Assembly: GCA_001724265.1 (NCBI GenBank)
Contig: MEDY01000088.1
Span: forward strand, 1 to 64,000
Source: Rhizaria sp. SCN 62-66
Taxonomy: Eukaryota
Length of the DNA: 64,000 nt
Direction: 5' to 3'
Shown here: positions 229-45,500 of the stretch, one piece after another
Layout of the letters: each line of letters starts with the position of its first letter
Numbering within the stretch: the stretch's first letter is position 1
Notes under the pieces: generated by a model
Told to the model about the DNA's origin: nothing
Database searches by the model: none
The model's input: only the letters and a program-made list of their open reading frames with translations
Translations under genes and position numbers: made by a program

Positions 229-756
229 ACTAACCACTGTGACGAACGTAGCGACGAGAACAAAGTCATTGAATGTAAACATGAACAAGGTGAGCTCCAG
301 TCAAAAGCGGCCCAATGATGACGCGGTCCGTGGAACGCGTCAACGTCGTGCTAAGACACATGCAATATAGTATTGCATAGAATATAGCATATTATATTGT
401 GATAGTGGCATTGCATTCACAAAGATTTAGTATATGATTCGCTATGAGGATCGTTTAAACTTGCGCGACCTCGACGCGGTCAGTCAACCTCGACGATTTT
501 TGCGAACCTGCCACGACCACAAACACCACACAGCAACTGTCACTGTGTCACAATGCTAAAACAGTTCCAGTGGTCCAAAGCTATAGTGAGTGCAAATGGA
601 TTTTGGAACGGAGTCTTTAGTGTATTCAACTGATTTTATAATACAAAATCTGTACAATCGACCTTCGTATTCCTGGCCATACGAGACAGGAGCATATTGT
701 TCATTGTGAGTAGTTCATTGTGAGTAACGTGAGTGCAAGCTCCGCTCCTAGACATC

Positions 757-2416: not shown

Positions 2417-5400
2417 ATGTCGCACCCCGCTGCACGCCTCGCTAAGGCAACCCCAAGGGTTGCGCATGCATTAGGTCATCTCCCACCTGTTACATCGACT
2501 GCGTATGGACCTGTGATGGCGCGCGGCTTGCTCGCAGCTGCCGATAACCGCTTGCTGCAGCGCTCTTGCGCCTCCACAGTTGCATCCTTGTCTGCCGTCG
2601 CATCCCAGCCTGTCGTCACGTCTTGTCCAGTGCGCGGATTTGCGCAGCGCCCATATCACCTACCGCAGCGCGGTGGCGATGCCGTGACCGCGCTGCCTGC
2701 GTGGGGCTCCCGCAGGCTTTCGGAGCTGTTCGAGCTGGCCCCGGACCGCGTGCCCGGCACTGTCGGCGGCTCTGCGCGGGGCTCTGAGCGTGGCTTCGCA
2801 CGCGACTCCGAGAGCGGCACCCAGCTCGGCCGCCGTCAGCGCGAGCACGACAACGAGGGGGCCGGTCGCGCGCGCCACGCGCGCCGCCGCGTCTTGAACC
2901 GCGCCGGCGCACATCTCGACGCCACGGCTCTCGACGCTGGCTCCACGGCGCCCGGCGCACAAAGTCGTTTGCATGCGCAGTCCCAGACGCACGCACACCC
3001 CCAGTCCTTGCCTCTGCGTGAGTAGGCGTTTGCGGAAGACTCGTCGCTGGCGGATGTCATGACCGAAGACGCGCTGTGCGCTGCGTACGTGCTGTCGCTG
3101 CACAACACAGCCGACAACGCGCGCAGCGGCGCGCTGACACAGACGCGGGCGCCCCGCGCGCGGCTCGGCGAATCGGCTGGCGCTGTGGCCGCGATCGGGG
3201 GCATCGGCGGCGGTGTCCACCTTGACTCTGGCGCGGTTGTGCAAAGCGAGGTGGCAGGGTTCACTTCGATAACGCAAGAGGACGCCAACGACTCGTACAG
3301 GCGCACGACAGTTCGCACACTTGGTAGCGCCCAAAACGTCATGCATGTACCCCATGCGAGCGGTTCCGTGGACGTTGTGCGTCATTCTCACACCGCCCAA
3401 ACTGAGCTCGCTGATGCGTCCCCTGTGTCATCTCAGACAGGGTCAGAGCGTCTGGCAGCCACCGATGCGACGAGCGATACGGTCAAGGCCGAGTCCGCGG
3501 CGCCTGCCAACCCGTGGGCCGGCACCGGCGTGGGCGCCAACGTCGACATCATCGGGCTGCTGGCCGCGTTCTCGCCGCCGCGGCCGTCCGCGCTCACGGT
3601 CACCGTCACGGCCAATAAGGCCAGTCCGCTGGCGCACCCGGTCCGGACCTACGCGATGCCCGCAAGCGCCGATGCCAGCAGCGACCCCGACGCGGGCGCT
3701 GGGGCGAGCCCTGTTGCGGCATGTGCTGGCGCGGTGACGGAGACCGAGCCAGCTTTCGGCGATGACCTGCTGCTCTCCAGTGGTGCCGAGTCTGCTGCGG
3801 CTGATGATACGGGCAATAGTGACGGCAATCGGTCCACGTCCGTGCCTGCGCCTCACACGGTCCAGAACGGCCATCCTGTGGCGTCAGATGTCTTGCTGCG
3901 GAGCCTGCTAAGCACGTTGCCCGACTCTCTCTTTGTAGCCTCTCAAACATCTGCATCCGCTAGCCCGGCCCCAGTGCTAGCGCCGCTCACTCCCCGCCTC
4001 TCCGCATTCGCAGCGTCGACTTACTGCTCCTACAGCGCGCACGCCGAGGCGCTGCTGCAGCACCCAACTCTGCGCGCGCAGGTCGCCACCGCCGTGGCCG
4101 CCACGCGCACCTACGTCTAGGACTAGTACGCCGCGCCGCTGACCGATGCGGCGAGCCCGTCCGCGTCTTGGCGCGACTGGGCCGCGCTCGTGCGCTACCG
4201 CAACGTGCAGCGCACACTGCGACGCGAGCTCGCGCCCCTGCTGTAGGAGCGCGCGCTGCGCGGGCTTGGAGTGGACGCGTATCCCGCGTTCGTGCTCACG
4301 GAGCAAGTCGGCGATGCGGGCGGCGCAGATGAGACCGCGCTCATCATGCTTCTGCACGATGCAGCGGCCGTGAATAATGTCATTATGAAAACCAACGATG
4401 TCAGTGACCACAGCTCTTCTAAATCTGAGCTGTCTGTGCTTGATAAGTTCTTCATGCGGGCCGAACACAAGGGTCGTTTGAAAGCGTTGAGTCACCCTTG
4501 GTTTGACAGTCCGTACACGCCTGATTACGGCAGCAACAATGCATGTGCTGATTACAGTTTCAATGATGCAAACACAACAGATGCTGATGTTAGCGCACAT
4601 CACTTTGCTCCTTTGGCTACTGTGGCTGCAACGCTGCGCATGAACGCGGCGCTACACGGCGCGACTCTGGTACCATTCGGCTCGACCACCACAGGTCTAG
4701 CGCCGCCTCAGTCGAAAGTCGTGCGCTTTGGTGGCTCTGACATCGATGTTGCCCTGCTCGGCTTGGGTCCACTTGGCGAAAGCGACGGCACGGTTGCCTT
4801 CTTCGGCTCGACCGACACCGCGCGCCACGTCTTCATGTTGCAGCGCATGGCTGAAGACCGTGTGCTGCTCAACGAGTTCGGCTATTCGTTCGCGTCGCGC
4901 CGCTACCGCGCCGCGCTCGAGACGCTGGACCCCAGTATCGTGCCCTTAGTCGCTAACGCGCTTACCAGTGCGGCGCCCACCGTGCACCAGCGCACCGTTG
5001 ACGCGACCGCGCCCGCTTTCACCAGCTTGATCAGTCGCGCCGCCGCCGGCTCGTCGAGCGCGCCACACATGGCGGTTGCACCGCCGACTCTGGCGTCGCT
5101 CGTCGTGCCGTCCGCTGCGGCCGCGCTATCCTACGACGCCGCGAGTGCGATGTTCCCGGCAGCGGACTGCGTGTATGGTCCTGTCGCCGCCGCAGAGGCG
5201 GCCGCGGCTGGTTCTCCTGACACTGCGCGACTGCGCGGCTCGCTCTTTGCTGAGGTTCGCGAGGCCGGCAATGGGGTGCACGAGGCACGACACCGTGCGC
5301 GTGCCTCCGGCAAGTCCTCGCCGCTCGACGTGGTCCCCACCGGGACACTCTCTGTCGCCGCAGTGGCTCCAGCTATTGCCGCATGGTATCGTGGAGTCGC

Positions 5401-6400
5401 CTGCGATCCATCAGTCGTGGCCGCTACTCCAGACTCTGTCAAATCTAGCACGGCATCGAAGGCTCCAGTAAGTGTTGCCACGAAGCTTTCGCTGTCGTCT
5501 GCGAAGCGTAATGTGAGTGTGCGTGTTGCGGGCGTACTCGCGGCAGCAGGGCTTCCCACTGAGGCCCTCACGCACGAGCGCATCCGCGTCCCCGTCGTTA
5601 AGGTATCCGTCTCTCGCTCGGTCCCGAAGTGTCCTTCGGCATCCTCGGAGTCTAAGGTCGGGACTGCGAATGACGCAGCGTCCGAAGCGGCTACAAAGCC
5701 GGAAGATAAGCATGCTGCTCCTGTCTGGCATCAGCCCTTCTCCGAGGCTGCGCGCGACAGCAGTCGCGTAGTCTGTGACATCTCGGTGAACAACTCGCTG
5801 GGCATTCTCAACTCGCGGCTGCTGCGCACGTACGCACGGTGCGACCCGCGGTTCCCGGTGTTGACGATGCTGGTGAAACAGTGGGCGCAAGCGAACTCGC
5901 TGCACGGTGCCCAGCACGGCCGGTTGTCAAGCTATGCGTGGGCGGTGTTGGTTCTCTTCTACCTGCAGACCGGTCCTGAGCACCCAGTGTTGCCGCGTCT
6001 GCAGGCTCTGACGCCGTTCCTGCCCGACGACACCTTCGCGCCTTTCCTGGTCAACGACATGGTGGTGGGCCTCTCGCGCCGCGACTGGGGCCCCATCGCG
6101 TCGCATTCGCTCAACAAGGACTCGATTGCCACGCTGCTCACGGGCTTCTTCACGTACTACGCGCGCTTTGACTTTGGCAGCTACGCGGTCTCGCCGCGTC
6201 TCGGCTGCGTGCTTCCTACTGGCTACAAGACGCGGTACGGCCACGCGCGTCCAGCCTCGCTGTACATCGAGGACCCGCTCGACGTGACGCATAACCTCGC
6301 GCGCCAATGCTCTCGGGACTTTGTATCCCAACTCTCGCGCGAGCTTTTCCGCGCTGCGCGTGTCATGGAACCAATCGAACCGAAGTACAGGCGTCAGTAA
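2417..6400 (+). CDS. Cid1/TUT-family terminal nucleotidyltransferase (probable uridylyltransferase), 1327 aa if four in-frame TAG are read as sense
   Basis: ORFs 2417-3025, 3059-4120 and 4271-6400 share one frame and are separated only by TAG (3023, 4118, 4124, 4244). Pol-beta NTase motifs PFGSTTTG..SDIDV, RVPVVK, CDISVNN, LVKQWA, LSSYAW and PAP-associated IEDPLDVTHNLAR; TAA stop. Confidence 0.85.
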
Positions 6401-6431: not shown

Positions 6432-7521
6432 TTACTCCGTGTCCAAGAGAGCTAGTATGCGTCGAATGAGCTCTTGAACTGCGTCAGTGTCGGCAATGGT
6501 GTATGTCGCCTTTGTGTCCACGTCGTCGGCGCTGTCGACAACATGGTCTTCTTTTTGCTGACTGTTTCCGACAGCTGCTGTAACGTTCGCCCCTGACGCT
6601 GTGACCCTGACGCCGACGCCACTGTTGGTGTCTGCGAGCTGAGCAAAAGCATCCTCGTCCGTTACATCATCACCCACGTACACTCCAAACAGCACACAAC
6701 TACCGCAGCTTTCGACGTTGGCATTGTCTTGGTAGTGTATGGTTGGGGCGGTGCGCGCTGCAGCTGCATGTGCGAGAACTGCGGCAACGCCAGCGCCTTT
6801 ATGTGGACTCCTGCGCGCGCGGATCTCCCATACTTTTTTCCCTCGTGTCAACCGGAGAAGTGGGGCAAAATCACACCGTTCAGCCTCAGCGTGCACTGCG
6901 GCGGCCACTGCCGCAACCCCCGCTGCCGTGGGCACGTTGCGGTAGTGCACGGGGATACTAAAAATGTTGAACAGGATTATTTGGCAACAATTATGAGATG
7001 ATGGTGACGCGTGGCATGCAACAAACTTAAGCTTATGCTCGTGACAACTGGGCCTACCTGTGTGGCGCATTTTCGATCAAGCAGCCATCCACGCCCTGTA
7101 GCGCGTCCATCAGCCTTGTACGACACTGTGTCAATGCCTGCTTCAGTACATCATCTTCCCCCGCATCTTCAACCTCTGTACGCGGCAACAGCGTTGCGAG
7201 CGGGACACTCTCGTTGGCATGTGGGAGGCGGATTTCCGCGCCGTGGCTACCGACGAGGTATGCCTCTGGCACGGGCACAAACCGAGCCAGCACGGCACAG
7301 GAGCGTCCTGAAACAATCGCGAGCGGCACGCGTCCTGCGAGTGTGCGCAACAGCGGCAGCGCGGCTGCGGGCAGCGCGGCCGCTGCGGGGTCGGCGACGA
7401 TCGGCGCCAGCGTGCCGTCAAAGTCAAGCAATACGCACAGAGAATCTACGTGTGGTGCAAGAATCGCGTTGAACGCAGACCAGTGCTCAAGTGCGTCAGG
7501 CAGAGTTGACACAGGCTGCAT
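6432..7521 (-). CDS. Trehalose-6-phosphate phosphatase (HAD family), 2 exons (7521-7058, 6957-6432), 329 aa
   Basis: LLDFDGTLAPIV, AIVSGR, GSHGAEI, KKVWEIR, HKGAGV, YVGDDVTDEDAF. A 100-nt GTAGGC...TTTAG intron (7057-6958) joins ENAPHSIPVHYRNV in frame; TAA stop. Confidence 0.93.
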
Positions 7522-7995: not shown

Positions 7996-10858
<2,863 letters not shown>

Positions 10859-11566: not shown

Positions 11567-13515
11567 ATGGCCACCCACCAGGGCACGCCGACGCACATTA
11601 ATCGCCAGATCCTGCCTGGCGCCGAGAAGTACTACTCGCGCCAGCTGGCGCTCTACGATCCAAAGGTTCTGAGCCAGCTGCGCATTGAGGACCACCCTGA
11701 GAAGGGTTTCGAGACTGTCAAGGTGTTCAAGATCGACAAGGTGCAGGACTTCATTCCTGACACCAAGTTCTACCCTAACGAGTTCAAGCGCACACGCGTG
11801 TCCCAGGTCCCACACTCGCGCCGCAGCCAGCCCTACTTCCGCTGGGTGCGCGACGACCAGGTCGTGATTGCCAACAACATCGTCGAGACGTTTGATGAGG
11901 CGAAGACGGCCGCCTTCAAGGACCACCTCGTGCCCTACACCTCGATGTTCCCCAAGCCCGCCGCCGCGGCCGCTGCCGCCACCGACAGCACTGACGGCAG
12001 CAGCAAGCCTGAGACGGTGTCCGCGATGCCCCCGCCGACGGTGGCGCCCGGGCGCACCGCGCTGGCGTTCCTGCAGGCTGGCCCGCGCGAGGTCATCCCC
12101 TGGCGCGACGGCGAGGTGCGCGCGGCCATCGTCACCTGCGGCGGCCTCTGCCCGGGCCTCAACAACGTCGTCCAGGAGCTCTTCTCCTCGCTGTACTACA
12201 ACTACGGCGTGGAGACGGTCTACGGCATCCGCTCCGGCTACCGCGGCTTCTGGCAGTCCGAGTACCAGCCCTGGCTGCGGCTGACGCCGGAGCTGACTCG
12301 CTCCATTCATGAGCTGGGCGGCTCCATCCTGGGCTCCTCGCGCGGCGGCTTCGACGTCACCAAGATCGTCAACGCGCTTGAGGTGTACGGCATCAACCAG
12401 CTGTACATCATCGGCGGCGACGGCACGCACCGCGGTGGCGGCGACATCCTCGCCGAGGCGCGCCGCCGCAAGCTCAAGCTCACCGTCGCCTGCATCCCCA
12501 AGACGATCGACAACGACGTGGGCATCATCGACCGCTCCTTTGGTTTTGACACGGCCGTGGCTGAGGCGCGCAAGGCCGTCTCCTCGGTTGTGCTCGAGGC
12601 CCAGTGCACGCGCAACGGCGTAGGAATCGTCAAGCTCATGGGCCGCCACGCCGGGTATATCGCCGCCCACGCCACGCTCGCCTCGCGCCAGGTATGTACA
12701 CAGCGTGGAAAACAACGAATTGATAGATATTGGATTGGTACTCGACACAAGTGCATGTATTCTAGATCTGCACATGATAACTCACTCGAACTCATCTCTT
12801 CCTCGGTCTTTCGTAACTTTCCTTGGCGTAGGTCGACGTGTGCCTGATCCCCGAGGTGCCGTTCCACTTGCATGGCGCGCACGGGCTGCTGCCGCACCTG
12901 GAGCGCGTGCTTAAGGCGCAGCACTCGGCCGTTGTCGTCGTCGCCGAGGGCGCGGGCGAGGACGTCATGGCGCGCGCTGCGCTGGCCGCGGGCGCTCAGG
13001 GCGCGGGCGAGGTGCAGCGCGACGCGTCGGGCAACGTCAAGCTGGGCGATATCGGCCACTTCCTGTCGGGCGCGGTCAGCGAATACTTTGCGGACCGCGG
13101 GCGCGGCGTGTCGGTCAAGTATGTCGACCCCAGCTACATGATCCGGTCCGTGCCGGCCGACGCCGAGGACGCAGTCTACTGCCTCTTCCTCGCCTCGCAC
13201 GCTGTGCACGGCGCCATGGCCGGGCTCACGGGCTTCTCCGTCGGGCTTGTCACGGGCCGCACCGTGTACCTGCCGCTCGAGGCCGTGGTCAAGGCGTCTC
13301 CGTCGTACATGAACCCGCGCGGTAGCACCTGGGAGCGCATCCTCAGCATGACTCATCAACCCAACTGGGGCGACCCGGACGTCTGTGAGGACGCCGCCGC
13401 CTCCGACGCCGCCGCGCTCGCCAGCGCCAACAAGAAGAAGGCAGCTGCGGCCGCAGCGGCGTCGGCGACCTCGGCCGTTAAGCCCATTGTGTACGACGGC
13501 AAGGCCAAGCTTTGA
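11567..13515 (+). CDS. PFK: 6-phosphofructokinase, group-X ATP-dependent type, 2 exons (11567-12691, 12832-13515), 602 aa, C-terminal -AKL
   Basis: AAIVTCGGLCPGLNNV, GGSILGSSRGG, IGGDGT, PKTIDND, FGFDTA, KLMGRHAGYIA, CLIPE, VVAEGAG, KYVDPSYMIRS. Intron 12692-12831 is GTATG...TAG; TGA stop. Confidence 0.96.
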
Positions 13516-18000: not shown

Positions 18001-18674
18001 GCCGGTAAAGAACACGGGGGAAACCAACGAGGTACTACACCGACCCATGCGTGACTCTGTAAGCACGAGGGGGCATCAGCAATACGCAAGTGACTTCTTG
18101 TGGAAATGAAATCCAGGCGTTCTGTTTAGTTCGGGTGATAGGCGTGACTACATCATCAAAAGGCTGAATATAACAAAATAAAATGCAAATTAATGCAAAA
18201 CTAAAACAACAGAACAGGAGGTGAAAACAAACCTACAAAAGTCACCTACCGTTGAACCAAAAAAAAAGGCACAATAAAACAAAAAGTAACACACGGAAAT
18301 ACAAATGACGAGATTATGAGCGTACAAAAATAACACCAACGAGCAAAACAGACAGCATCGACATGAACGAGCCAATGTGAAAACAAATTGATTAAAAGCA
18401 CCTGATTAAAAAGAAACGCTCACGGTTCTCGCGGCGAGAGCCAAATCTTGCCGCTCGCTCGTCGATACCGCTGTGCCACGATGGCAAGGCGCACTGAACG
18501 GAGTCAGTGGCCGACTCTTCAGGCATATTGTCTAGTGATGTGTACATGGCGCGGCGGCTACAGTCCACAATGACTGCAACCTCGATGGGACCAACAACGC
18601 TACCAGAACGAGTCAACCGAACAACAAGCAAACGAATGTTTGACAAAAACAACGAAAAATCATAAAATGGAGTT

Positions 18675-21600
18675 TCATAACTCCGCACGTGCGGGCGTAC
18701 TGGCCTGAGTGGCCTTGATAGCCTTAACGGCGTCGCTGTTACCGCTGCTATTGGAGCTGTAGATGTCTGTTGCGAGCGTAATGCTCGATGCACGTAACAT
18801 CGCCGCAATCCTCGCTCCGGGGCTCACAGCCGCGCCGGCCTTGCTCTGCCCAGGCACAGTGTGATCGAGAGCGCCGCGACCCGAAGTCTCGAGGTCAATA
18901 TCGCCGTCACCGTCGCCGTCGCCGTCACCATCATGGTCGCCGAGGGGTAGGCGGCCGAAACTCTTGCCGAACGCATCGTTCGCAGCGCCCGTGGCTTTGG
19001 TACCGGCGCCGTTGTGGGCGTGGAACGACGTCGTCCCCAGCCCACCGCTCGAGTGCATGCGGGCCAGAGCAGCATGAGCATGACCGCGCGCGTGGGCGCT
19101 GTTGTTAGCGCCCTGGGTGGCCGTGGGGGCGCGCGCTGGGCCACGGCCAGCGAAGCTCTTGGTAGCATGCGGCGTCAGCGACGGTGGCGCTGTGAAACCA
19201 GAGCCGGAGCCATTGACGGAGAGCGGTGAGATGCAGTCGATGCGCAGCACGTGCGCGCCCGCGGCGCCGGCGCCGGCGTCAACGCCGGAGCCCGGCTGCG
19301 CGTCCGCGTGGACCGGCGGGCTGGAGAGGCTGCTGGTGGCGAGCGGCGAGCCGAAGCCGAAGCCGACACTGGCACCGCAGGACTCGGCGCCACTGGGCGC
19401 CATGGCTGAGGGAGCCAGAGTCGAGGGCGCCAGGTGTAGCGACGAGCCTTGCATCGACGGGGCTAACAGTGACACAGGACCGGGGCGCAGGGCCGAAGAA
19501 CCAAAGAAAGGCGACGACGCGAAGTTAGCGTCCGCGCCAGCATTAATATTGGAGTTCGTATTCGTGCCCACTGTGGGAGTGACATGAGCAGCGACATCAG
19601 GGACAGCAGCATCAACAGTCGGAGAAGCAAGAGTGACAGGCGCAGCGCCAGTCTGAGGAAATGAAACAGCAAGTGGTGAGGACAATAATGTGCCAGAAGA
19701 TGCTGGCGAAGCCAGGACAACGCTGTTTAACTGTTGCTGCTGCTGTGAATGAGGTTGTTGTTGTTGCTGCTGATGATGATGATGATGATGTTGCTGATGC
19801 TGTTGCGCGAGTTTATGTGAGTGGAATGCTGAGGCTGCCGCGAGGCTCGCGACCGCGGCTGGCAGCGGCAGCGGGAGCGTCGTGTTCTGCGCGCTCTCCG
19901 TGTTCTGTGCAAGGCCCTGCTGCAGCTGCGACAAAGCTCTGGAGTAGGTCGCCGCAGTCACCCCGGTGTTGTTGCTGGAGGACGACAGCGAGTGCTGCAC
20001 GGCGAGTGGCGCGCGACCCGACGCCGCCGAATGCGAAGCGGCTGAGTAAGATGACGACGAAGCCATGGCGGCAGAGCGACCGTAGTGCAGCGACGTGGGC
20101 GACACCATCGACGACGCGGGTGAGGCCAACACGCGGCCGTGCAGCGGACTGGACGGGTCGCTGTCCTGTGTGAGTGATGACCGCTTGGCCATCTCGGGCA
20201 TGGGCATTGTGTTGCTGTTGCTGTTGTTGTTGTTGCTGTTGTTGTTATTGTTGTTGGTACTATTGATGTTTGAGTTGTTGATGCTGTTAATATTGTTTGG
20301 GAGATTGTTTGGGTCGGTGTTGTTAATGTTGTTGCTGTTAGGGAAGAAGAACGCAGCCCCACCCGCTGTGCTGCGTGTTGCGCTGCTGCCGCCGGCGCCC
20401 AGGTAGTACGAGTTGGCGCGCCCATCAAACGCGATGGGCACCGTGGGGGACATGAGCGGCGGCGCGAGCTGCGCGGACGACGCCGCGGACGATGACGAAA
20501 GTGGGGATAGCATGAACCCGTTCGCGTTGTGAGACGAGCTGGTGAACGCAAACAAAGGCACCGGGAGCTGCGACTGCGTGAGTTGCTGTTGCGAAATCGG
20601 AAGGTTGTTGTTCGCAGGGACGGTGATGGGAGTAGGGCGCGCGAGCTTGACGGACGACTGACCCGTCAGAGCCTGCGGTTGCAGTTGCAGCTGCATCTAC
20701 ACCTGAGAGTGGGAATGAGACCGGATGGGCGACAGCATCTTGGCCGCAGGGGCCTTCGCCAGTTCGGTTGAGACAGGCCCGGGGCCAGTCACCGCAGCGG
20801 ATGCTGAGGGCGCCGCAGGCGCAGCAGGCGCAGCAGGCGTAGCGATCGTCGTAAAACCGACAATGAGTTGCGACGACTGTGCCGCGTGGTGCGCATGCAG
20901 CAGCGGTGAGAGTGCTCTGAAGACCACGCCAGTCGCCGCCGACCCGTTAGCGTCGGAGCCCACGGGAGGAACTTTCTGCTGCGGGGATTGATGTAGCTAC
21001 AGCTGCGGCTTGAACTGCGACAGCTACAGTGGCTGCTGTTGCAACTGGGACTGCGACTAGAACTGTGTCTGTGGCTTGAGGGGAAATGAGCTGCCGCCAG
21101 CAGCGTACGCACTCTAAGACTGCAGCGTCATGACCGTTTTCGGCGGTGCCAATTGCGAATGTGTCTGATAGTGAGGCCCGTTCCCTTGCCCATGCTTGGG
21201 GCCTTGGCCGTGGCCGTGACCTTGGCCGTGGCCGTGAGTGTGTCCCTGGCTCTGCGTGGCCTGAGCCTGCAGCTGCTCAGCCTGAAGACGCTTGCGACGC
21301 GCATCCTTGTCCTCGAGCGCGAGCTCCAGCTGCAGCGGTGGTACCATAGCAGCCAACTCAGTCTGGCGACGAGTCAGTCGCGCGCCACTCCGCGAGCCGC
21401 TTGAGCTGCTGCCATTGTTCGAGTGCACAAACGAGTTGGCGCGCTGGCCGCTGAACTCAGGCGCGGCGTATGTAGCGCCGTCACCGCCAAACGAGTCGGC
21501 GTTGCTGAGCAGTCCGGCGTCGTCGCGCGACTGCGACATCGCAACCGCGTGCGCGGCGACGGCGGCCGTGTTCGCATCGCTGTCGGCCTCGGCCTCGACG

Positions 21601-24600
21601 TCGGACTCGTCGATGATGTCCAAGCCGGCCATCTCAAGCATCTTCTTGCCCCAGTCGGTCTTGTCGGTCTCGTCACGCTCTCTGACGGTGCGGCGCGCCT
21701 GCTGCTGCTGCTGCTGCTGCTCCTGCTCCTGTTCCTGCTCCTGCTGCTCCTTCTGCTGCTGCGGCGGCTGCTGCTGCTGCTGCTGCTGCTTCACAAGAGC
21801 TTGCTGTGCGAGCTGCGCCTGTGCTTGCGCCTGATTCTGCGCCTGGGTGGCGAGCATAGCGGGTGTGTGAAGCTGCGCCTTGCTCTGTTGCTGCGTCTGC
21901 GCACGCTGCGCCTGCTGCCACTGCTGCTGTTGCTGTTGTTGTTGCTGTACACTAAGCTGAAGGTGTTGTTGTGACTGGAAGGCGTTGGACGCGAGCCCCT
22001 GCATCGGCACCGGCTGCAGCCCCGTGGCGGTGCCGGCGGACGCGAACGCGGCGGCAGGCGCGACGCGGAAGTGCGAAGGCGACGGCAGCTGCGCGGGCAG
22101 CGGTGAGCCGGGGCCCTGCAGCGACGGCGACATGGGCTGCGCGGGAGACATCGGCGACGCGCACACGAACTCGACGGCCAGCGCGGGCGACTGTGCGGCG
22201 AGGGGCGTCGGCACGGTGAGCATCGCGGCGCCGGACACAGTCGTCGCCGGCTGGGCGGGCGTCGCGCACGGAGTCGGCATGCCCGCGATCGCCACCAGCG
22301 GCATCGGCTCAGGCGCAGAGGCCGTTGACGTCGCAGTCGTCGCCGTCATAGTCATCGGCGTTGCAAGAGCGGCGGTAGCAGCAGAAGCAACGGCAGTCGC
22401 GGAAACAGCAGTGGTCGCGCCGCTGGGCACCGTAAGCAGCGCCTGCGAGGCCGCAGTCTTGAGGCTCTTGGAGCTGCCGGCGCGGCTGTCAGTCTGCAAC
22501 GAGTCGACGACGAGCGATGACGCGGGCGCAGCGTGCTTCTTTAGCGACGGACTGATGCTACGGAAGAACTCAGACTGCTGCGGGATGGTGCGCTCGCGCT
22601 CGCGCTCGCGGGGCGCGCCCAGGGCCACGGTCGCCGCGGCGGGCACGCGCCGGCCCTCGGCGAGCGCCACAACGGCCGCGGACGCAACTGCGGCTGTATC
22701 AGCGGCAGACGTCAGCGACAACGACGCCGCGGTGGTCGCGGTGGCCGAGGCCGCCGTCGTGGCCGTAGGCCGCGCAAGCTCGAGCGTCTGCGGCGGGTCC
22801 GAACGCGCTTGCTGCTGCACGAGTGGCGACGCAATCGACGACGGCGCGGCAGACATGAGCGGCGACGTTACTTGCGGCTGCGTCGGCGCGACCGCAGAGG
22901 CGCCTAGCAGCGCCTTGCCCGAGACCGGTGCGCTGGCGTCCGTGTCGGTGCTGTGGCGCGGACCGTGGAGGCGGCCGACGCCGGAGCTGCTGGGCACCGT
23001 GGAGTTGGACGCAGAAACGGACAACGCCACCAGGCCCGTCGACAGCGTGGGGGCCACGTAGCTCGCGGCCGCGATCGTCGTCGGTGGTGCGGTCGTCGTG
23101 TCACCATCGCCGTCGCCGTCGCCGTTGACGTTCACCGTGCACGAGAACTGCGCAGACGTTGGAGTCGACGTCTTGGCCTCGGCCGCCGCAGCAGCAGCGG
23201 CGGCGGCAGCAGCAGCGGCGGCGTTGGCCGCGGCCGCGGAGCGCAGCGGCGAGAGCGCATCGTCAGAGTCAGCGAGCCTGGCGACGACTGCGGCGAGGCT
23301 GAGTGAGGCCACGGCCGAGGTGGCGTGCGAGCCGCGCGCCGAGGCCAGGCACTGCAGCTCGGGGTCCTCGTCTGTGTCGTCGGTGTTGGTGCTGGGAGTG
23401 CGCGCGGCGACCGGCGCCGCGGAGGACGTCGCTGCGGAGACCTTGGTCCGGCTGACGTTAACCACCACGGGCGTCGAGGGGCTCTGGACCTCTGACTCCC
23501 GCATCGCCGAAGGCTCGGCGGGCGCAGCCAGCGCGGCGGGCACACCGGGCACGGCGGGCGCGGTGAAAGTGTCATTAGGGTCGTCGCCGCGACTTGTGTG
23601 CTCCTCCGACTCGCGGAACGCGCTGGCGTCGAGCGCCAGGTCGCCGGTGAGCGCGACAGGGACGAAGCCCAGCTTGAGGGAGGACGACGCCGACGCGCGC
23701 GCGTTGAACGGCCGCGTCGGCGACGCGGGCGACAGTGACGAGGAGACGAAGGGCGCCGAGACCGTGGCGTTGGTGACATCGTGCATCGGGGACACGTAGT
23801 GGCTGCTCGGGGTCAGCAATGCGGCCGACTTGCTGTGCGCGTGCGGAGATCCAACTGCGGCAACGATTCCGTAGCCGATAGGGCGCGTCTTGCGGCCAGG
23901 AGTGCCCGCGCTGCCGACGCCCGCACCGGCGCTGACGCTGCCGCCGAGGCCGCCGCTGGGGGCCGAGATGACGAGCGTGGTGGGGAAGGCGCTGGTGGCG
24001 CTGGCGGACTCGAAGTAGGGGCTCGAGGGGCCGGAGCTGAGGCCAAAGGCCGGCGCAGGCAACGGGCCCGAGGACGGGCTGACAAGGTGCCCCGCGGGCG
24101 ACGGCGCCGTCAGCGGCGTTTGACCCGTGAGCGGCGTGCGGATGCTGTTGCTGCTGCTGACGCCGCGCGAGGTGACCGTCGCGGGCGGCAGCGTCGAGGC
24201 CGCGATAGAGCCAGTGCCCGAGACCGAGGACTGCGCGAGCGAGGCCAGCACGCCGCCGCCGGAGCCCAGGCCCAGGCCGGAGCCGGGGCCGGTGGACGAG
24301 AGCGGCCCGCGGTACAGGGGGCCGATCATCGTGATCACGGAGCTGCGCGGCAGCGCGTTGGGGGTGCCGAAGGCGCTGCCGGAGCCGCTGCCGCCGAGGT
24401 TGCTCAGCGTGTACGCGTGGGGGTTCTGGGTTGTCTGTGATTGCATGTGTGCGGCCATCAGCGAGGTGGACACGGTAAGAGGAGAGCCGTGCTGCTGCGG
24501 CGAGCCCGGGAACCCACCCCCCGCACCAGAGCCCTTGCTTCGGGAGTGACGCAAGCGGGCACCAGAGCCGCCGCCGCGGCCGCCGCTGGAGCCCATGCGC

Positions 24601-25382
24601 GAGAGCGAGTGTAACGCGGCCGGTCCGGCGTCGTCCTCGCCGTAGTCGTGGGAGTGATCGTCCGCGTCTCCGTCTCCATCGGCATCAGCGTCAGCGTCGG
24701 CGTCGGCGTCAGCTTCTGTGCTGGGGGTAGCCTCGATAGCAATCGCGTCGATGGGACTGTTGGAGGCGGAGGGAACCGTAACGAGCGTGCCGTCTCCGGA
24801 AGCGCCAACATCGCGGGAAGAGGATGTCGGGGCCGCGGGTGTGTGATGGACAGAAGAAGGGATCGGCATGTGCGGGCCGTGGAAGCAAGGGGAGGTCGTT
24901 TCTGCAAGAGTAGCCGTGGTCATCAAAGGGGAGATGAAGTCGTCCGCGGGAGGGCTAGCACCAGCGAGTCCAGATGAGGCAGCCTTCTTTGCGTCATGGG
25001 ACCTCGAAAAATGCGCGCCGCCACTCCTCAGCCCCATCTCGATCGATGCGGAGCCGCCAACAGGGTTAACCTCGGACTGTTCTGATGCCTCCTCAACGGG
25101 GGCCAGCAGGACAATGGGGATCTCCCCATCGTTTGCGTGGGGCGTGGCGTTTGTGGATAGGGGTGCGGAGTATTTTGATGCTGCCTTTGTAGAGTGAGGC
25201 CCCGGCACAGCGGGTTGTGAGTCTGTAGTTACGTCGATAGGGCCCTCAGAAACGTCTGGCCATCCGAGTCGAGGTGTTGGATGGTGGACGGCGTCAGTCG
25301 AAGCTGGATGGTCTGGTGTAGCTGCGGGGTGGGTGCTCCCGACTTTGCCGGGAGACTTGCCTTTGAACGAACAATTACCCAT
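18675..25382 (-). CDS. Very long low-complexity S/A/P/Q-rich protein with MGNC N-terminus, 2235 aa if five in-frame TAG are read as sense
   Basis: ORFs 21114-25595, 20697-20963 and 18675-20696 are one frame broken only by TAG at 21114, 21057, 21024, 20997 and 20697. Composition is continuous across them. Likely start MGNCSFKGK at 25382; TGA stop. No recognisable folded domain. Confidence 0.75.
20205..20340 (-). repeat. Coding AAC-rich repeat (poly-Asn tract)
   Basis: (GTT)n-like run on the plus strand encoding NSNNINN...NNNNNNSNNNNSNSN. Confidence 0.85.
21699..21790 (-). repeat. Coding CAG/GAG trinucleotide repeat (poly-Gln/Glu)
   Basis: (CTG)n/(CTC)n on the plus strand encoding QQQQQQQPPQQQKEQQEQEQEQEQQQQQQQ. 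Confidence 0.85.
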
Positions 25383-25994
25383 CCAGCTGACATCACCAAA
25401 GTTTCCAAAAAACCAAGCTGGAGGCGCACAGAAAGAAAATAAGAAAAGGCCACAGGGGGCAGTGAGACAACACATCGTCCGAAGGTTCGTTCTGAAGACA
25501 TATCCTGGCATATCGTTCAGATGAATGCGGCTGCGAATAACGGAAGCAAATAAAAATCGTCCTAGCAGACAACGAAACCATATCACAGTATTCATTTGAG
25601 GGACGTGTCAAGCTGCAAAGCCTTCGCATTCTCAAGTGTGGACTAGGTCGGCTCACGCCCACGGTCGACAACCGTCTCCCAAAAGCGGAGTGCCTGGGCT
25701 TTCTGCACAAAACTGCAGCACCCACAAGCTACATTTGATTGTGATTGAATTTAAAGAAATGAAAAACTACGGGTTTACATGAAAGCGTGTGTATTTTTTG
25801 AAAGAAAGTCTGGCACGTAGTGAAAAAAACCCTTGTTATAGAACGCGTCGTTTTTAGAGGTGGTTGCCTGGGCGCGTGGCCCTACAAAGCCACTTCAAAC
25901 GCAACGTACATCTCCATCATATCACAATACCGCATCATAAATCACCGTATTTGATCGTCTAAACTTGATTCGAAGCCTTTTGCGTCCGATCCGC

Positions 25995-36734: not shown

Positions 36735-39700
36735 TTACAGCTCAAACCTGTCCGCATCTGACTCCGCGCTGAGCTCGTCCTTGGGCATCACAGCCGCGAC
36801 ATCGCTGTCGTCCTCGGTGCTGGACCGGTCGCTCGCACCAGCGCCCTCGCGCTGCTGCCTCTTGTACTGCTGTCGCGCCAGCCGCGACCCTTGCCGCAGC
36901 GCACGCTGCGTCTTCTGCGCCAGAGCTGCCGCGGCTGCGCCCGCACTGAAGTCCCTGCCGCCACCCTCCGCCAGCACGCCGTCATTTTCGCTGCCGCTGT
37001 CGGAGTCGCCGTAGTTGCCCGCAGTGAACCGGTCGGCGCCATAGAACGTCGCCCCCACGACCCGCGCACGCCCACGCCGCCCCCGCTGGCCCGGATCCGC
37101 GGTCTCGGCAGCATCGTCGGCCGCGGATTTCTCGCGCTCCCTGCGCGCGCGCATCGCGGCCAGGTCCGCCTCGAGCCGCCAGTCAAGCGCCTCTTTGATG
37201 TTCTTGTTCGCGCGCCGCTGCGCCGCGTCTGGCGCTTCGAGCCGCTCCAGCTGCTGCGCACGCAGGTGTGCTAGCGGGTGGCGCGCGCGGTCCTCTTCCT
37301 CCTGCGCCGCGCGCAGCTGCGCCAGCTCGGCCGCGTGCCGCGCCTGCCAGCGCTCCTCGCGCTCGCGCGCGCGCGCCTCCTTGGCCGTCTCGGGCACGTG
37401 CGCGGTGCCGACGCCGAGCCAGATCGAGTCATCGAGCCCGAACCCGTCGTCGTCGCCGTCGTTGGTGTTGTCGGTCGCGCTCAAGCTGACGTTGACGCTG
37501 GCGTTAAGCGAGGCGGGCGCGGACGCCAGTGTCGAGGCAGCTGTCGTCGCGCGACTGCTGGGGAGGCTGTCGTCGTCAGAGTCGTCACCACCAACAACGA
37601 CAGCAGCGGCTGCCGCCGTGTCACCGTCCGTTCTGACGTTGAGGTTGTGATCGCCCCCGTGATCCTTGTCCTTGTCGAAAGACTTCGCAACCGTCGCCAC
37701 AGATACGCCGGCGCTCGCACCAGCCCCAGTGGCGGAGCCGCCCTGTTGCAGCTCCGCCTCGGAGAAGTAGTTAAGCTTGCGGTGCAGCGCTTCCCTCACT
37801 GCGCGCCGTGAAGCGGCCGACGAGCGCGGCACCGCAGCAGCGGCAGAGGCGGCCGCAGCAGAGGCGGCCTCGGCCTCAGCAGCCGCGGCCTCAGCCTCCG
37901 CTTTCGCCGCCTCCGCGGCCGCGCGCAGCTCCGCCGAGCGCTCGGTGAACACATTGGACACAACGGCGGCAACGCCACTCCTGCTGCTCTTCCTGCTCAC
38001 GGTGCCGTTCACGTGGTTCTCGCTCGCCGCCAGGCGCGCGGCGTGCTCCGCGGCGGCCTCGTCGGCGGCGCGCAGCGCCGCGGCGAGCGCCGCGGCGGCC
38101 TTGGTCTTGGCCGCAGCGGCCGCGGCCGCAGTGGCGGCGCGCGTGGCGGCGGCCTCGGCAGCGGCAACGATCTTGTCCGCATCCTGCTCCGCGGCGATGC
38201 GCTTGGCGTCGGCCTTGGCCTGGCGCGCGCGGCGCTTCTCCTCTTCGCCGCGCTCACGCTCGCGCTCGGCCTCGTCCTCCTGGTGCTTGAACGCCGCGCG
38301 CAGCTCCTCCGGCAGGCGCACCTTTAGGTACAGGTACGAGTCGATGCTGCCGGCCCGCAGGTCCTCGGCGCGCGCGGCCTCGAACAGGTGCCGCGCAACG
38401 GCCACCCACGCCAGCGCCGACGACGCGCGCGTGGCGCCCGCGGCGGCGACGGCTGCGGGCAGCAGACGCAGCTCCAGCGGCGTCCACAGTGGCCCGCCGC
38501 CCGGAATCGCCACTGTCGCCTGGCGGTCGCGCGCAAAGCGCTCCGAGCGCGAGAGCCCGTCGTCGGAGCTGTGCGCGCGCTGCTCGCGTCCGCGCCGGCG
38601 GGAGCCGGCACGCGGGCGACTGGCGCCTCCAGCGCGCGCGGGACCGTTGTCACCCTTCTTGCCCCGGCGACTACGGCTGTCGGCGCGAGATCGTCGCCCG
38701 CGCCCGCCAGCGGTTTCGTCGACATAGTCATCCTCGTCGTCATCGCTATCGTCACTTTCGCTGCCGTCTTCACTGCTGCCGCTGCCCGAGAGCCCGTCGC
38801 TGATGAAGCCCTTGTCGCTGTCGTCTTCGCTGCTGTCCGCGACCGCCATCTCTGCCACGGCGCGCCGCACGTATGCGTTCTTCATCTTGCGCATCGCGGC
38901 GGGCGTGTTGGGCTCTTGGTCGCGCAGCGAGCGCCAGGACACCGCGCTGGCGTTCGCGGCACCAGCGCTTGCGGCGCGCTTGGCGGGCGTCGCCTTGATC
39001 GGCGTCGCCCGCGAGCCCGCAGCCCTGGCCGGCGTCGCGGCGCCGGGGCGGCCCCGCGACACGATGCGCCCGCGCAAGTGCGGGTCCGAGTCAGAGTCGT
39101 CGCTGCCGCTGCCGGACTCAGTCTCGCTCTCGCTCTCGGTCACCGTCGTCGCGTCACTGGCCCAGCCGCTCGCTGCCGCGCGCGCGCCCCCGCGTCCGCG
39201 ACCACTGGCAGCGGGACCCGGCGCAGGGCGCGCGTGTTTGGCGCTGCCGGGCGTGCGCACACCCGCGCCCGCGCTTGACGTCGCGCGAAGCGAGCGCGCG
39301 GCAGGGCTGGCGAGAGGAGAGCTGGCCCTGCGCTTGCGCGACGCGCTGCCGGTCGCCGTCTGACTGCGACTCTTTGAGCGCGCGCCGCCCCGCGCCGCCG
39401 CACCACCGCTCTTACCGCCACGAGCACCGGTCCCGCGGCTGCGGCTGCGGCCGTCACTGTTTTTGCCGTCGTCATCACTGTCACCGTCGTCGTCGCCGTC
39501 GTCGTTTTCAGTGTCGCTGGCACTGTTATGGCGGTCGGTCGACTCGGAGTCGTCGCTGCTGATGACGATAGGTGTCTCGAGCGAGCTGCCCAGCGCCCCC
39601 AGCGCGTCGCGCCGCGCCGACCTGCTCCGCAGCGGGCGCGCCGGCGTCACAAGAGGCGCCCGCGCAGGCGCCGCAGACGCCTGAGTCCGCGGCGACGACC

Positions 39701-41600
39701 GGGACGGCGCCCTGGTCTGCGCTCTCGCCGGCGGCCGGGCAGCAGCTGCAGGCTTGCTTTGCGGCTTCACAGGCGTTGCCACACGAACATTGGGTGCAAA
39801 GGCAGACGCCGATGCCGACGCTGACGCGCGCGCATGCAGCGTCCCCCTGAGCGCGGCTGGAACCTTGATCGGGCTGGGGGCGCACTTGACCGCAGCGGCC
39901 CGCTCTGCGGCGGCTTTGGCCTTGCGCCGCGTGTTGGCGCGCGTAACGTCGTAGTCGTCGTCGTCATCGTCGCTGCCGATGGCGGCCGTGGCGACAGGCG
40001 AGCTCTCGTTGCTGTCGACAATGACCACGGCCTCGCCCGCTTCCATGTCGCTGTCAGTACTTAGATCGGTCATGCGTATAGTATTGCCGCGCAATGCACC
40101 ACGCGACGCATTGCGCAACGCCGTGCGTGGAGAGGTGCGCGCCGCAACACCCGCACCGGTGGCACTGGTCTTGCCGCCGCTACGAGCCCGGCCGGGCGTG
40201 TAGATCTGCGCGACCGGCAGCACCAACGCAGCCGCGTCGCGCCGAGCGGACACGCCGACGCCACTCTGTGCAGCGCTGGCCTTGGCCAGGGCCTGGCCCC
40301 AGACTTCGTCATCGTCATCATCGTCGTCGTCGACGACGACTTCGTTGTTGCTCACTGCGACGGTATTACTGTGGACGCTGCTCGCAGGCTTCACGCCGCT
40401 GCCTGTGCGCTTCACAGGCGTGACACGCGGCGCCGTTCTCCCCGTCGCCGCCGCCGTCGGCGCGGACGCGGTCGCAGAGGCTGTGGACGAAGAGGTGGTA
40501 ACGGTCGACCTCATGCTGCGCCGGACACTGCCTACAGCAGCTGCAGCCGGCGCTGTCGTGACCGACTGAGACAGCGAGGCCGGCGGCGGGGAGACAACGG
40601 CGGCCGTGAGCAGGGTGTCCGTGCCGCGGGTCGAGCGCGCTGGCGTGCTGTTGCTCGCAGCAACGCTCGGAGTCGCAGTCCCTGCGGCACTGGCGCTCAC
40701 GTTGGTGCTCCGAGCTGCTGCGAACGCGCCGATGGGGGCGCGGACCAGGCTCGCGGCCGTGGCGAAGCCCGACGCGGCCAACAGAGAGCGCCGTGGCCGC
40801 GACTGCGTCGGAGACGTCTCCGCATCTGCCGCAGACGCAGTCGGCGAGGTGGCGGTCACGGCGGCAGCGGTTTTGGGCGGCGGCAGCGGGGGACCCATGG
40901 GCGCGACTGCGTGCGCCAGCGACTGCGACAGGTCGCGCGCCGAGGACGCCCCCGTCTTCGCTGCATTCATCGCTGCAGCGGCAGACGCAGTTGCGGAGCC
41001 AGGGGCCGGGACGACAGGCGTCGCGGCGGCCGAGCTGCGGGGGGCCACTTCCAGGGGCAGCACGGGCGCCGTGGCGGCCGAGGAGCCGGCGGAGCCCGCG
41101 CCATGGGCCTTGGCCGGCGAGCCGCACCCGGAGCCCGTAGAGGATGCGCACGCAGCGTCGGCGCCTGCGTTGGTACCCTAAAAGTGCGAGGTGTCGAATA
41201 CGACGCTCTGCTGCTTGCCAGTCATTGGCTGCTGGTGTGATGGGGACGCGGAGGTGACCGTGGTGGCGCAGCTGGGCGGCGCGGTGGAACATTGCGTAGA
41301 AGTGGCGGAGGTCTGCACTGGTGAGATCAGTACGTTGTCAGTCGACATCCTGTTGAATATGGAATAAATGCCCTTAATGTTGGCAATGCCCGTCATGAGC
41401 GGCGAACCCGAACCTGTGGAGGCTGCGGGCACAGGGGTTGCTCCACGGGAGGTGCTCCGCGTCCCAGGAGACGCGGAAAAAGAGCTTGTGTCCGAGGTCG
41501 AGTTTGATATTCCCTCCGCGAGTGACAGCTCAGCGTCGGGGGAGCCGTGGGGACTTTGACGAGGGCCAGCCTCGCTCGTTTGTCGAGACGGTGGCGGCAT
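36735..41600 (-). CDS. Large low-complexity, probably nuclear protein, 1621 aa with one in-frame TAG (41178-41180)
   Basis: ORFs 41178-41600 and 36735-41063 are in the same frame, separated only by TAG. S/A/R/D-rich, SIM-like PIVISSDD, helical C-terminal part; TAA stop. Confidence 0.72.
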
Positions 41601-42567: not shown

Positions 42568-45500
42568 ATGTCAGCTCCTGTCGAAGGCAAGATTCAGCTC
42601 CCCGTGGCCGGTGAGCGCAACGTGCTCATCACGTCTGCGCTGCCTTACGTGAACAACGTGCCTCACCTGGGCAACATTGTCGGCTGCGTGCTGTCCGGCG
42701 ACGTTTACGCGCGCTTCTGCCGTCTTCGCGGCTACAACACGCTCTACATCTGCGGCACAGATGAGTACGGCACTGCAACCGAGACCAAGGCCCAGCAGGA
42801 GGGCCTGACCCCGCAGCAGATCTGCGACAAGTACCATGTCATCCACAAGGCCGTGTACGACTGGTTCGACATTGCGTTCGACCACTTCGGCCGCACGTCG
42901 ACGCCGACGCAGACGGCCATCGCCCAGGACATCTTCAAGAAGTGCGACGCCAACAAGTTCATTTGCTGCCAGAAGACGCAGCAGTTCTACTGTACGCCCT
43001 GCGACCGCTTCCTTGCGGACCGCTTTGTGTCGGGTGTGTGCCCGTTCTGCAAGTACGAGGACGCTAAGGGCGACCAGTGCGACAAGTGCTCCAAGCTTAT
43101 CAACGCCATCGAGCTCACCAACCCGCTGTGCACGGTGTGCAAGGCCGCGCCCCAGGTCAAGGACTCGAAGCAGCTATGCCTGACGCTGCCCAAGCTTCAG
43201 TGTAAGCTCAAGAACTTTGTAAAGCAGAACTACGGCCCCTGGTCCGCTAACGCGCGCCAGGTGACGGACGCGTGGCTGGCCCAGAAGCTCATCGCGCGCC
43301 AGATCACGCGCGACCTCAAGTGGGGCACGCCCGTGCCGAAGCCGGGGTTCGACTCCAAGGTCTTCTACGTGTGGTTCGACGCGCCGATCGGGTACATCTC
43401 CATCACGGCGGGCTACTCGGACCAGTGGCAGAAGTGGTGGAAGTGGGACCGCGCCGACGGCGCCGAGCACAAGCCCGCCGCTGACTGCGCCGACACCGCG
43501 TGCGAGGAGTGCGAAGAGCCCGCTGCGGGCCCCGAGGCCGGCGCCGAGGGCGCGGATGACAAGGACGCGAAGCTGTACAAGGACTGCGAAGGCTGCGCCG
43601 AGTGCGACGACGCGGCCAAGCCTGAGTTCGTGGACAAGTACAACGTCGAGCTGGTGCAATTTCTCGGCAAGGACAACATCCCGTTCCACTCGGTCATGTT
43701 CCCGTCGACGCTGCTGGCCGCCAAGGACGGCTACATCATGCCCCGCACAATCTCGTCCACCGAGTACCTCAACTACGAGGGCGCCAAGTTCTCTAAGACG
43801 CGCGGCGTGGGCGTCTTCGGCGACCAGGCTCGCGACACGGGCGTGCCCTCCGAGGTCTGGCGCTATTACTTGCTGGCGAACCGGCCCGAGCAGGCCGACA
43901 CGATGTTCACCTGGGACGACTTCGCATCTAAGGCCAATTCGGAGCTGCCCAACAACCTCGGCAACCTCGTGCAGCGTGTGCTCGCCTTCATCTCCTCCAA
44001 GCTCGGCGGAGTGGTGCCTGCGGCTGTGTCCAGCAAGCTGGGCGACGCCGAGACGCAGCTCGAGACTGAGGTCGCGGACCTGATGCAGAACTACGTCAAG
44101 CTGCTTGACACGCAGTCGCTCAAGGACGCGCTGCGCACGGCCATGAACATCTCCATGGCCGGCAACAAGTACATGCAGGACAAGAAGCCCTGGGCACTCA
44201 CCGAGGACGCCGAGGCGTGCGGCACCGCGCTGGCAGTGCTCACGCAGCTCATCTACTTGCTCGCCATCATCCTCGACCCCTTCATGCCGGGCTTCTCGCG
44301 CAAGGTCTTCGCGCAGCTCAACCTCACCATGCCCACGACCCCGCTCAAGAACATCGAGGCCGGCATGGAGGGCAGCGCCTGGCCCCTTGCCAAGATCCTC
44401 GCCGCGGCCGCCGCGGCCGCGCAGAACCCCGAGGCTGCGGTCGTGCCGGGCCTCATCGTCGTGCCCGCGGGCCACAAGCTCGGCGCGCCCGCGCCCATTT
44501 TCGGCAAGCTCGACGCCGGCCGCGTCACCGAGCTCCGCCAGAAGTTCCAGGTACGTACCCACACGCCTATCTTTCACGTTATATTATCCGTTTGGTACGG
44601 ATGCAACGTCTTGTTTTTTTTTTTTTCTTCCTGTTTTATATCTTCATACCCACTCTACTGTTTCTGTTGCTCCTTTTGCAGGGTGCTGTGACCGAGGCCA
44701 CTGGCGCCCCGTTCCCGATGACACTGGTGACCGGCGTGGTGACCGAGGTGGGCGAGCACCCCACCAACGCCAAGTGTTACGTGCTCAAGGTCGACTGCGG
44801 CGAGCCCGAGCAGCGGCAGATCGTGTCGACGCTCGTGGCCAGCTACTCGCCCGAGGCGCTGCTGGGCAAGACTGTGCTCGTGTTGACCAACCTCAAGCCG
44901 GGCAAGTTCGGCGGTGTGCTCTCGCAGGGCATGATCCTCACCGCGCTCTACGCAGAGGGCGACAAGACGACCATCAAGGTCCTCACCTCGGCCGCGCCCA
45001 AGGGCTCTAAGGCCGTCCCCGAGGGCTCTCACCATGAACCCGTCAAGGTCTTCGACGTCAAGTCCAAGCTCAACGCCGTCCAGCTTAACACCGTTGCGGG
45101 TGGCAAGGTACGATTTAACACAACACACAATGTTCATGATACTATCGCGCAACACAGTCATGTTGCGCGTTCTTTTTTATGCGCTGCTTTATGCGAAGGA
45201 GACAGCTTTGCTGGACTTATGGTCCCGTAGCCTGTTTCTGATTCAACAGCGCTAGATTCTCAACTTTAATACGCTCACCTTTTGCGAAGGAGACAGTTTT
45301 GCTGAACCGAATGGTTTTTTAGCCTGTTTCTGATGTAGGCGAGCAAGATTCTACTTGTTCTTTTTTGTTTTTTGTTTTGTTTTGTTTGTTCTTACATCAC
45401 TGTTGGTGACAACTCCCAATTCCATGTTGTCTCACTTCGTTTTCTGCCACCCCCTTCTTGCCTTGGTTTCCGCCCCCACAGATCCACGTCGGCACCGCGC

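Follow-up and report, generated by a model that had tools for sequence, protein, structure and literature searches.

UAG-only reassignments and the locus studied

In Iotanema spirale (Fornicata), UAG is decoded as glutamine (Gln) and UAA and UGA serve as stops; the portion of the report consulted here (Panek et al. 2017, PMC5304391) gives 204 in-frame UAGs in 126 genes, Gln at 22 of 28 hyperconserved sites, and a GTS-to-GGS change in eRF1. Further changes restricted to UAG appear in the excerpted part of McGowan et al. 2024 (PMC11687900), with UAG read as Gln in Protocruzia tuzeti, as Gln or Leu in phyllopharyngean ciliates, as Leu in the rhizarian exLh and as Ser in Scotinosphaera. Here we describe 64,000 nucleotides (nt) of DNA, hereafter the window (positions 1 to 64,000 of contig MEDY01000088.1, GenBank assembly GCA_001724265.1, deposited as Rhizaria sp. 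SCN 62-66), in which ten in-frame TAG codons lie within three protein-coding genes, five of them in 420 nt of the minus strand (20697..21116). UAG is probably a rare sense codon in this organism, most likely specifying Gln, which would leave UAA and UGA to end translation. To our knowledge, a meaning of UAG uncoupled from that of UAA is known from just a handful of eukaryotic lineages. A code with TAG as Gln is NCBI translation table 15.

The locus resembles Iotanema, as that code is presented in the consulted portion of its description, in that UAG alone occurs in frame, UAA and UGA are the sole terminators, Gln is the likely residue and UAG is a minority Gln codon. It differs in extent, since UAG makes up about 8% of Gln codons in Iotanema, whereas here ten UAGs are distributed over 3 of 17 genes (1.6% of Gln codons), with none in a conserved column; nothing ties the organism to the fornicates. 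The uncoupling of UAG from UAA is shared with Protocruzia, phyllopharyngean ciliates, exLh and Scotinosphaera, as these are summarized in the excerpt, although the likely residue differs from the Leu of exLh and the Ser of Scotinosphaera. These ciliates are A+T-rich and have gene-sized or fragmented chromosomes, whereas the 64-kb window has a G+C content of about 62%, long open reading frames (ORFs) on both strands and ordinary gene spacing. In the ambiguous stop/sense codes (Condylostoma, karyorelicts, and Blastocrithidia for UAA) the translated stop codon also ends genes, and programmed read-through involves a single leaky stop in a defined 3' context. Both have in common with the reading proposed here that in-frame stop codons would be translated. 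Unlike the ambiguous codes, none of 16 complete genes in the window uses TAG as its terminator, and unlike programmed read-through, there are five TAGs in 140 codons of one gene and three in 43 codons of another, in diverse 3' contexts. This type of code is already known, and the lineage appears to be new. The literature searched, supplementary files aside, describes no reassigned UAG in eukaryotes from wastewater or in GC-rich flagellates.

In-frame TAG codons and gene termination

The cluster occupies a Q-rich, low-complexity part of a long minus-strand ORF (18675..25595, 2306 codons, ending in TGA), which is rich in Ala, Ser and Gln and belongs to no Pfam family. Its five TAGs (21116-21114, 21059-21057, 21026-21024, 20999-20997 and 20699-20697, minus strand; codons 1494, 1513, 1524, 1533 and 1633) were found at the sites and in the contexts that the first-pass annotation had quoted, namely TLQS*SAY, PQTQF*SQSQ, QQQPL*LSQF, KPQL*LHQ and SHSQV*MQLQLQ. 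The frame of the long ORF contains these five TAGs, no TAA and no TGA, and each of the other five frames contains 31-86 stops. All five sense-strand TAG triplets of the 420-nt cluster are in frame 0, with none in frames 1 or 2. The first ~100 codons of this ORF (25380-25595, minus strand) read like non-coding sequence and include 17 rare codons. The true start is probably downstream of 25595, at an internal MGNCSFKGK, which we take to be a myristoylation-like N-terminus.

Four further TAGs (3023, 4118, 4124 and 4244, plus strand; codons 203, 568, 570 and 610) occur in an ORF for a Cid1/MTPAP-like nucleotidyltransferase (2417..6400, plus strand, 1327 codons, stop TAA). The tenth (41180-41178, minus strand; codon 141, context DTSHF*GTNAG) is the single TAG of an ORF of 1621 codons without a Pfam family (36735..41600, minus strand, stop TAA). 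Across the curated gene models, which comprise 15,693 codons, there are ten in-frame TAGs (5, 4 and 1 in the three genes), no TAA and no TGA, so that the earlier count of ten internal TAGs in three genes was correct. Three other TAGs that appear to be in frame, at 8555 (Tgs1), 12829 (phosphofructokinase, PFK) and 45228 (intron 2 of MetRS), are not sense codons. The diversity of the 3' contexts also held: the base following TAG is A, T, C, C, A, G, G, T, G and G, with no shared motif.

Of the 16 complete genes, 8 have TAA and 8 have TGA as their terminator; TAG terminates none. The first-pass annotation had counted 15 complete genes with 8 TAA and 7 TGA; that tally needed correction, and its statement that TAG is not used as a terminator stood.

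Coding character across the TAG codons

Codon structure continues in frame over the TAGs of all three ORFs, all of which are in poorly conserved regions. We scored frames with a codon-usage log-odds table trained on the clean genes of the window. Frame 0 is the best of the three frames throughout codons 1481-1660 of the long ORF and throughout codons 176-650 of the Cid1-like ORF, where codons 526-600 (log-odds 0.33-0.42; G+C at third codon positions, GC3, 0.90-0.92) are among the most coding-like of the gene. The 420-nt cluster has a G+C content of 0.63 and a frame-0 log-odds of -0.09, compared with scores between -0.59 and -1.18 in the five remaining frames, and its score lies above those of all 70 intergenic windows of 420 nt (best -0.24). 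The 14 intergenic spacers have G+C contents of 0.39-0.53.

The Cid1-like protein has a nucleotidyltransferase motif in its C-terminal half, downstream of codon 610 (FGS...DID, which by eye we take to be this motif), and a PAP_assoc domain at amino acids (aa) 1236-1292. As motif and domain are both downstream of all four TAGs, a functional Cid1-like product needs read-through or an internal start.

TAG codons in independent sequence data

The TAGs are genuinely present in the DNA. At each of the nine TAGs in the two main genes, the window is matched by contigs from other studies, and these TAGs are therefore not assembly errors. One 1256-nt contig, from run X4 of a separate study, corresponds to 20265-21482 with 0 differences and spans all five cluster TAGs; this run is labelled RNA-Seq but was rated as probably DNA. 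In the Cid1-like gene, a contig of run X3 covers 2499-5040 with 0 differences, including all four TAGs, and contigs of run X6 cover 2993-3689 and 3944-5019, again with 0 differences. The strain in X6 differs slightly: over 19.9 kb, 28 differences are listed, and none of them falls on a TAG that its contigs cover. The earlier reading of these codons as TAG rather than CAG was thus upheld in independent sequence, T-A-G being kept in the contigs of X3, X4 and X6. A polyA-RNA run (X10) includes contigs beside the TAG sites, at 21417-21666 in the long ORF and 4879-5544 in the Cid1-like gene. The RNA comparison gave contigs and no intron junctions, even for verified introns, and is silent on splicing and editing.

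Codon usage and the proposed amino acid at UAG

TAG looks like a rare A/T-rich sense codon that is confined to weakly biased genes. In the window it occurs 10 times, compared with 6 ATA, 10 AGA and 12 TTA codons, and the three TAG-bearing genes, which hold 34% of the codons, contain 5 of the 6 ATA, 7 of the 10 AGA and 10 of the 12 TTA. Their GC3 is the lowest in the window or close to it (0.72-0.80), and their CAA shares are among the highest (0.18-0.29). Such a distribution would account for the lack of TAG in the dynein gene (4543 codons, GC3 0.89).

Gln is our best guess for the residue, based on the local xQxQ context and on the CAG-to-TAG transition. Four of the five cluster TAGs come two codons after a Q and fit the phase of xQxQ repeats (e.g. 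QV*MQLQLQPQ). A likelihood based on neighbouring Q in codons 1380-1720 of the long ORF gives 1.0 for Q, 0.65 for H, 0.46 for K and 0.001 for L; Glu is too rare in this region (6 cases) for the score. CAG is one transition from TAG, AAG and GAG are also one step away, and His codons are two steps away. CAG is used 543 times and CAA 80 times in the window (CAG is 87% of the CAG and CAA codons), so the ten TAGs would be 10 of 633 Gln codons. The TAG contexts in the Cid1-like gene (RE*AF, YV*D*YA and LL*ER) are not Q-rich and are uninformative about the residue. Regarding the original proposal that UAG encodes Gln and that UAA and UGA are stops, the tests within the window favour a sense reading of UAG; Gln is favoured by context and mutational proximity, and Lys and Glu are less likely possibilities.

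We hypothesize that ribosomes read through the TAGs by means of a tRNA with the anticodon CUA or an efficient near-cognate tRNA-Gln, that eRF1 would no longer recognise UAG, and that new UAG codons would arise mostly by C-to-T transition from CAG. An altered eRF1 would be expected to show changes in the N-domain motifs involved in stop-codon reading (GTS, NIKS and YxCxxxF).

Introns and gene models

The gene models had initially been treated as intron-free, an assumption that did not survive: six GT-AG introns, located in PFK, MetRS (two), Tgs1 (one), the gene at 28456 and trehalose phosphatase, were verified from their sequence and composition. They are 92-374 nt long, have G+C contents of 0.37-0.45 and start with GTATGT, GTACGT, GTACGA or GTAGGC. 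The Tgs1 intron (8466..8557, plus strand, GTACGA...CCTAG) has TAG 8555 as its 3' splice site, and a further upstream intron is inferred in this gene from its translation alone. The PFK intron (12692..12831, plus strand, GTATGT...GCGTAG) likewise has TAG 12829 as its 3' splice site, the gene ending in AKL-TGA at 13513. MetRS intron 2 (45108..45481, plus strand, GTACGA...CACAG) contains TAG 45228, and the TAA at 45566 closes the last exon. The trehalose-phosphatase intron (6958..7057, minus strand, 100 nt, G+C 0.42) has the donor AG/GTAGGC, so a G-TAG-G sequence can serve as a splice donor in this organism.

We examined the in-frame TAGs as possible parts of introns. Eleven in-frame GTRNG..YAG intervals occur in the area of the cluster, with G+C contents of 0.60-0.66; splicing out any of them would leave the first TAG in place. 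No GT..AG interval was found that removes all five cluster TAGs, and in the Cid1-like gene no candidate intron removes TAG 4118 together with the others. The sole intron-like interval over the TAG of ORF 36735..41600 (41333-41178) has the 5' site GTACTG, which lacks G5, and a G+C content of 0.61; an intron over TAG 41180 is unlikely.

Homologues, tRNA genes and public gene calls

Sequence comparison bore out the earlier remark that no TAG falls in a conserved alignment column. A word-index search with the full-length Cid1-like protein gave no match. An exhaustive HMMER search recovered the window's own three split pieces and matches to the C-terminal domain (28-44% identity) only, and a search with a 601-aa piece recovered only the window's own fragment. 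Public protein sets hold the Cid1-like gene split at its TAGs, as proteins of 202 aa (P0100), 353 aa (P0002) and 586 aa (P0001). MetRS (42568-44691) is present in public protein sets as a 707-aa protein that runs into the first intron.

Evidence weighed and alternative explanations

Several observations weigh against UAG as a sense codon for Gln. In none of the three protein searches does a homologue cover a TAG site, ARAGORN finds 0 tRNA genes within the 64-kb window, Rfam gives no hit, the eRF1 gene lies outside the window, and among the contigs listed no polyA-RNA contig crosses any TAG. The lack of TAG terminators in 16 genes is weak evidence, given the small sample; a standard-code relative of Iotanema terminates with UAG in just 7 of 170 genes, according to the part of PMC5304391 consulted. 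The same part describes UAG in conserved genes of Iotanema such as RPB1, and here TAG is absent from every conserved gene, including those for dynein (4543 codons) and MetRS (831 codons). The TAGs are also significantly clustered, a point that the first-pass annotation had passed over, with p = 0.006 for five in 140 codons among the 155 Gln-type codons of the long ORF, p = 0.002 among its 38 CAA and TAG positions, and p = 0.017 for three of the four TAGs of the Cid1-like gene in 43 codons, and a neutral synonymous codon should not cluster. A local CAG-to-TAG burst, tolerated because TAG is readable, is our guess at the origin of the clusters. Short direct repeats (13-15 nt) in which a TAG unit is paired with a CAG or GAG unit probably arose by chance. 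Between 67 and 69% of the possible nonsense substitutions in the three genes produce TAG, so the probability that all ten would be TAG is ~0.02. The strain differences downstream of the cluster (4 synonymous and 3 non-synonymous) are too few to indicate selection. The occurrence of TAG alone in frame and its absence from gene ends, both used as evidence in the first-pass annotation, are real patterns, but their weight had been over-read (p ~0.02 and n = 16, respectively).

UAG might be a sense codon that does not specify Gln, or not Gln alone, and could instead be read as Lys, Glu or Leu, or ambiguously by low-efficiency near-cognate decoding. We regard this as unlikely. No conserved column fixes the residue, the context likelihood leaves Q, H and K unseparated, the TAGs of the Cid1-like gene are outside Q-rich context, and UAG is Leu, Ser or Glu in other lineages covered by the excerpt of PMC11687900. 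The xQxQ phase of four of the five cluster TAGs favours Gln, as does the low likelihood of Leu (about 1000 times less likely), and among the codons one step from TAG, CAG is much the most frequent and is linked to it by a transition, with His two steps off. More doubtful again is a standard code in which the TAGs are nonsense mutations, so that three weakly constrained genes would be truncated or dead, with their downstream frames undecayed. Such an explanation is consistent with the confinement of every TAG to the three least biased, poorly conserved genes, with clustering as from a local C-to-T burst at CAG, and with the two-thirds of nonsense mutations here that would be TAG; an old lesion would in any case be common to the nearly identical strains sampled. 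However, only 2.1-2.7% of the substitutions possible in these genes (5% in the cluster) are nonsense changes, and ten of them imply hundreds of other changes together with indels, whereas in 5254 codons there is no frameshift, no TAA or TGA, and full codon structure. In addition, the catalytic half of the Cid1-like gene, downstream of its TAGs, is intact, the polyA-RNA run contains contigs from both main genes, and 3 dead genes among 16 neighbours would be unlikely in a compact genome. The only version of the nonsense explanation that fits is a targeted C-to-T burst at CAG.

The least likely of the explanations considered is that the gene models are wrong, with the TAG stretches being unusual GC-rich introns or the long ORF comprising two genes, of which the first would end at TAG 21116 and the second would start at the ATG right after TAG 20699. 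An ATG does directly follow the fifth TAG (V*MQLQ). TAGs 3023 and 4244 of the Cid1-like gene are in GTAGG, the donor type of the trehalose-phosphatase intron (spanned by the hexamers GTAGGC and GTAGGA, respectively), GTACGC follows the first cluster TAG (at 21108) and also overlaps TAG 4124, and TAG 41180 resembles an acceptor of the form CTTTTAG/G. Moreover, real introns were overlooked in the first reading, and no RNA contig is listed across the sites. Nevertheless, no GT..AG interval removes the first cluster TAG or the pair at 4118 and 4124, and the candidate intervals have G+C contents of 0.53-0.74, compared with 0.37-0.45 in the six introns, and are without pyrimidine tracts. The cluster exceeds every intergenic window in codon structure, and its G+C content is above the range of the spacers. 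If the long ORF were two genes, the first would be the sole TAG-terminated gene of 17.

A sense reading of UAG, most likely as Gln, is therefore the explanation that we prefer. A narrower version of it, which we offer tentatively, is that this is an independent and still early capture of UAG in a lineage without a sampled close relative, in which UAG has been lost as a terminator and its use as a sense codon is limited. UAG would so far have spread only into weakly biased, fast-evolving genes, in local CAG-to-TAG bursts. Given that no named organism is closely related to this lineage, the independent origin suggested in the first-pass annotation is plausible.

Source organism and neighbouring genes

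The source organism is a flagellate with GC-rich DNA and few introns, encountered repeatedly in metagenomes from bioreactors and wastewater. The stretch is present in runs of 6 studies (bioreactor, wastewater and activated sludge). Genes recognised in the window, besides that of the Cid1/MTPAP-like nucleotidyltransferase, encode Pop4 (RNase P/MRP p29), Tgs1, PFK, MetRS, MTHFD, trehalose phosphatase, SRP14, a tRNA-binding domain of MetRS, and an axonemal inner-arm dynein heavy chain of 4543 aa. These genes, axonemal dynein among them, identify the window as nuclear DNA of a flagellated eukaryote. The PDB matches (axonemal inner-arm dynein, human-type MetRS and trypanosome-like PFK) indicate no particular taxon. 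A trypanosomatid origin was ruled out by mixed gene orientation, GT-AG introns, Pop4 and the type of MetRS.

Among named sequences aligned over the whole query, the best MetRS matches are 47-52% identical (plants and Heterostelium); named matches with 60-67% identity span only ~43% of the query, and one environmental sequence (P0152) reaches 62% identity. Because the similarity of MetRS to named sequences is so low, we consider the lineage to be without a close named relative. A search of the ESM Atlas with MetRS found bacterial MetRS clusters only. A metagenome scan with PFK exon 1, in a collection from which the window's own contig is absent, found 35 loci, all at most 50% identical (tblastn) and none usable as a relative; 34 of the 35 have G+C contents below 59%, and the remaining one, at 68%, is a 1.8-kb fragment with 48% identity.

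The PFK is closest in the PDB to trypanosome glycosomal enzymes, and its C-terminus is -AKL followed by TGA (13504-13515), presumably a PTS1-like peroxisomal targeting tripeptide. Together, the similarity and the -AKL end hint at peroxisomal or glycosome-like glycolysis, as judged from the sequence.

Other features of the window include a partial ORF with a strong coding score (log-odds 0.56) at the left edge (1-300, minus strand). Its 100-aa fragment has no match in Pfam, and by eye we take it to resemble the N-terminal region of ribosomal protein S5/uS7. The long TAG-bearing ORF is followed downstream by a gene-free spacer of 3.6 kb (15071-18674, G+C 0.45) with a strong purine excess on the plus strand (AT skew 0.33 and GC skew 0.19 at 16-18 kb) and a single short tandem repeat. 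A composite repeat of ~200 nt occurs at 45175-45378 and 45679-45879, the copies being 500 nt apart, one within MetRS intron 2 and the other just downstream of the MetRS stop. It consists of two ~86-nt units with the common core GCGAAGGAGACAG(C/T)TTTGCTG...TAGCCTGT(T/C)TCTGAT and looks like a small mobile or structured element; Rfam gave no match for it.

Implications for UAG reassignment

If a sense reading of UAG is confirmed, the novelty would lie in the lineage, in how very rarely the codon is used and in its confinement to genes of low bias. Standard gene callers cut genes at TAG, and the proteome of this organism would consequently be mis-predicted in metagenome resources. Reassignment of UAG uncoupled from UAA bears on how eRF1 and tRNAs discriminate UAG from UAA, and the present case, if true, would be an added data point on stop-codon capture, in a G+C-rich, non-ciliate flagellate of engineered water systems. 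Should the capture be early, it would provide a snapshot of stop-codon takeover in an organism that can be traced in wastewater plants worldwide.

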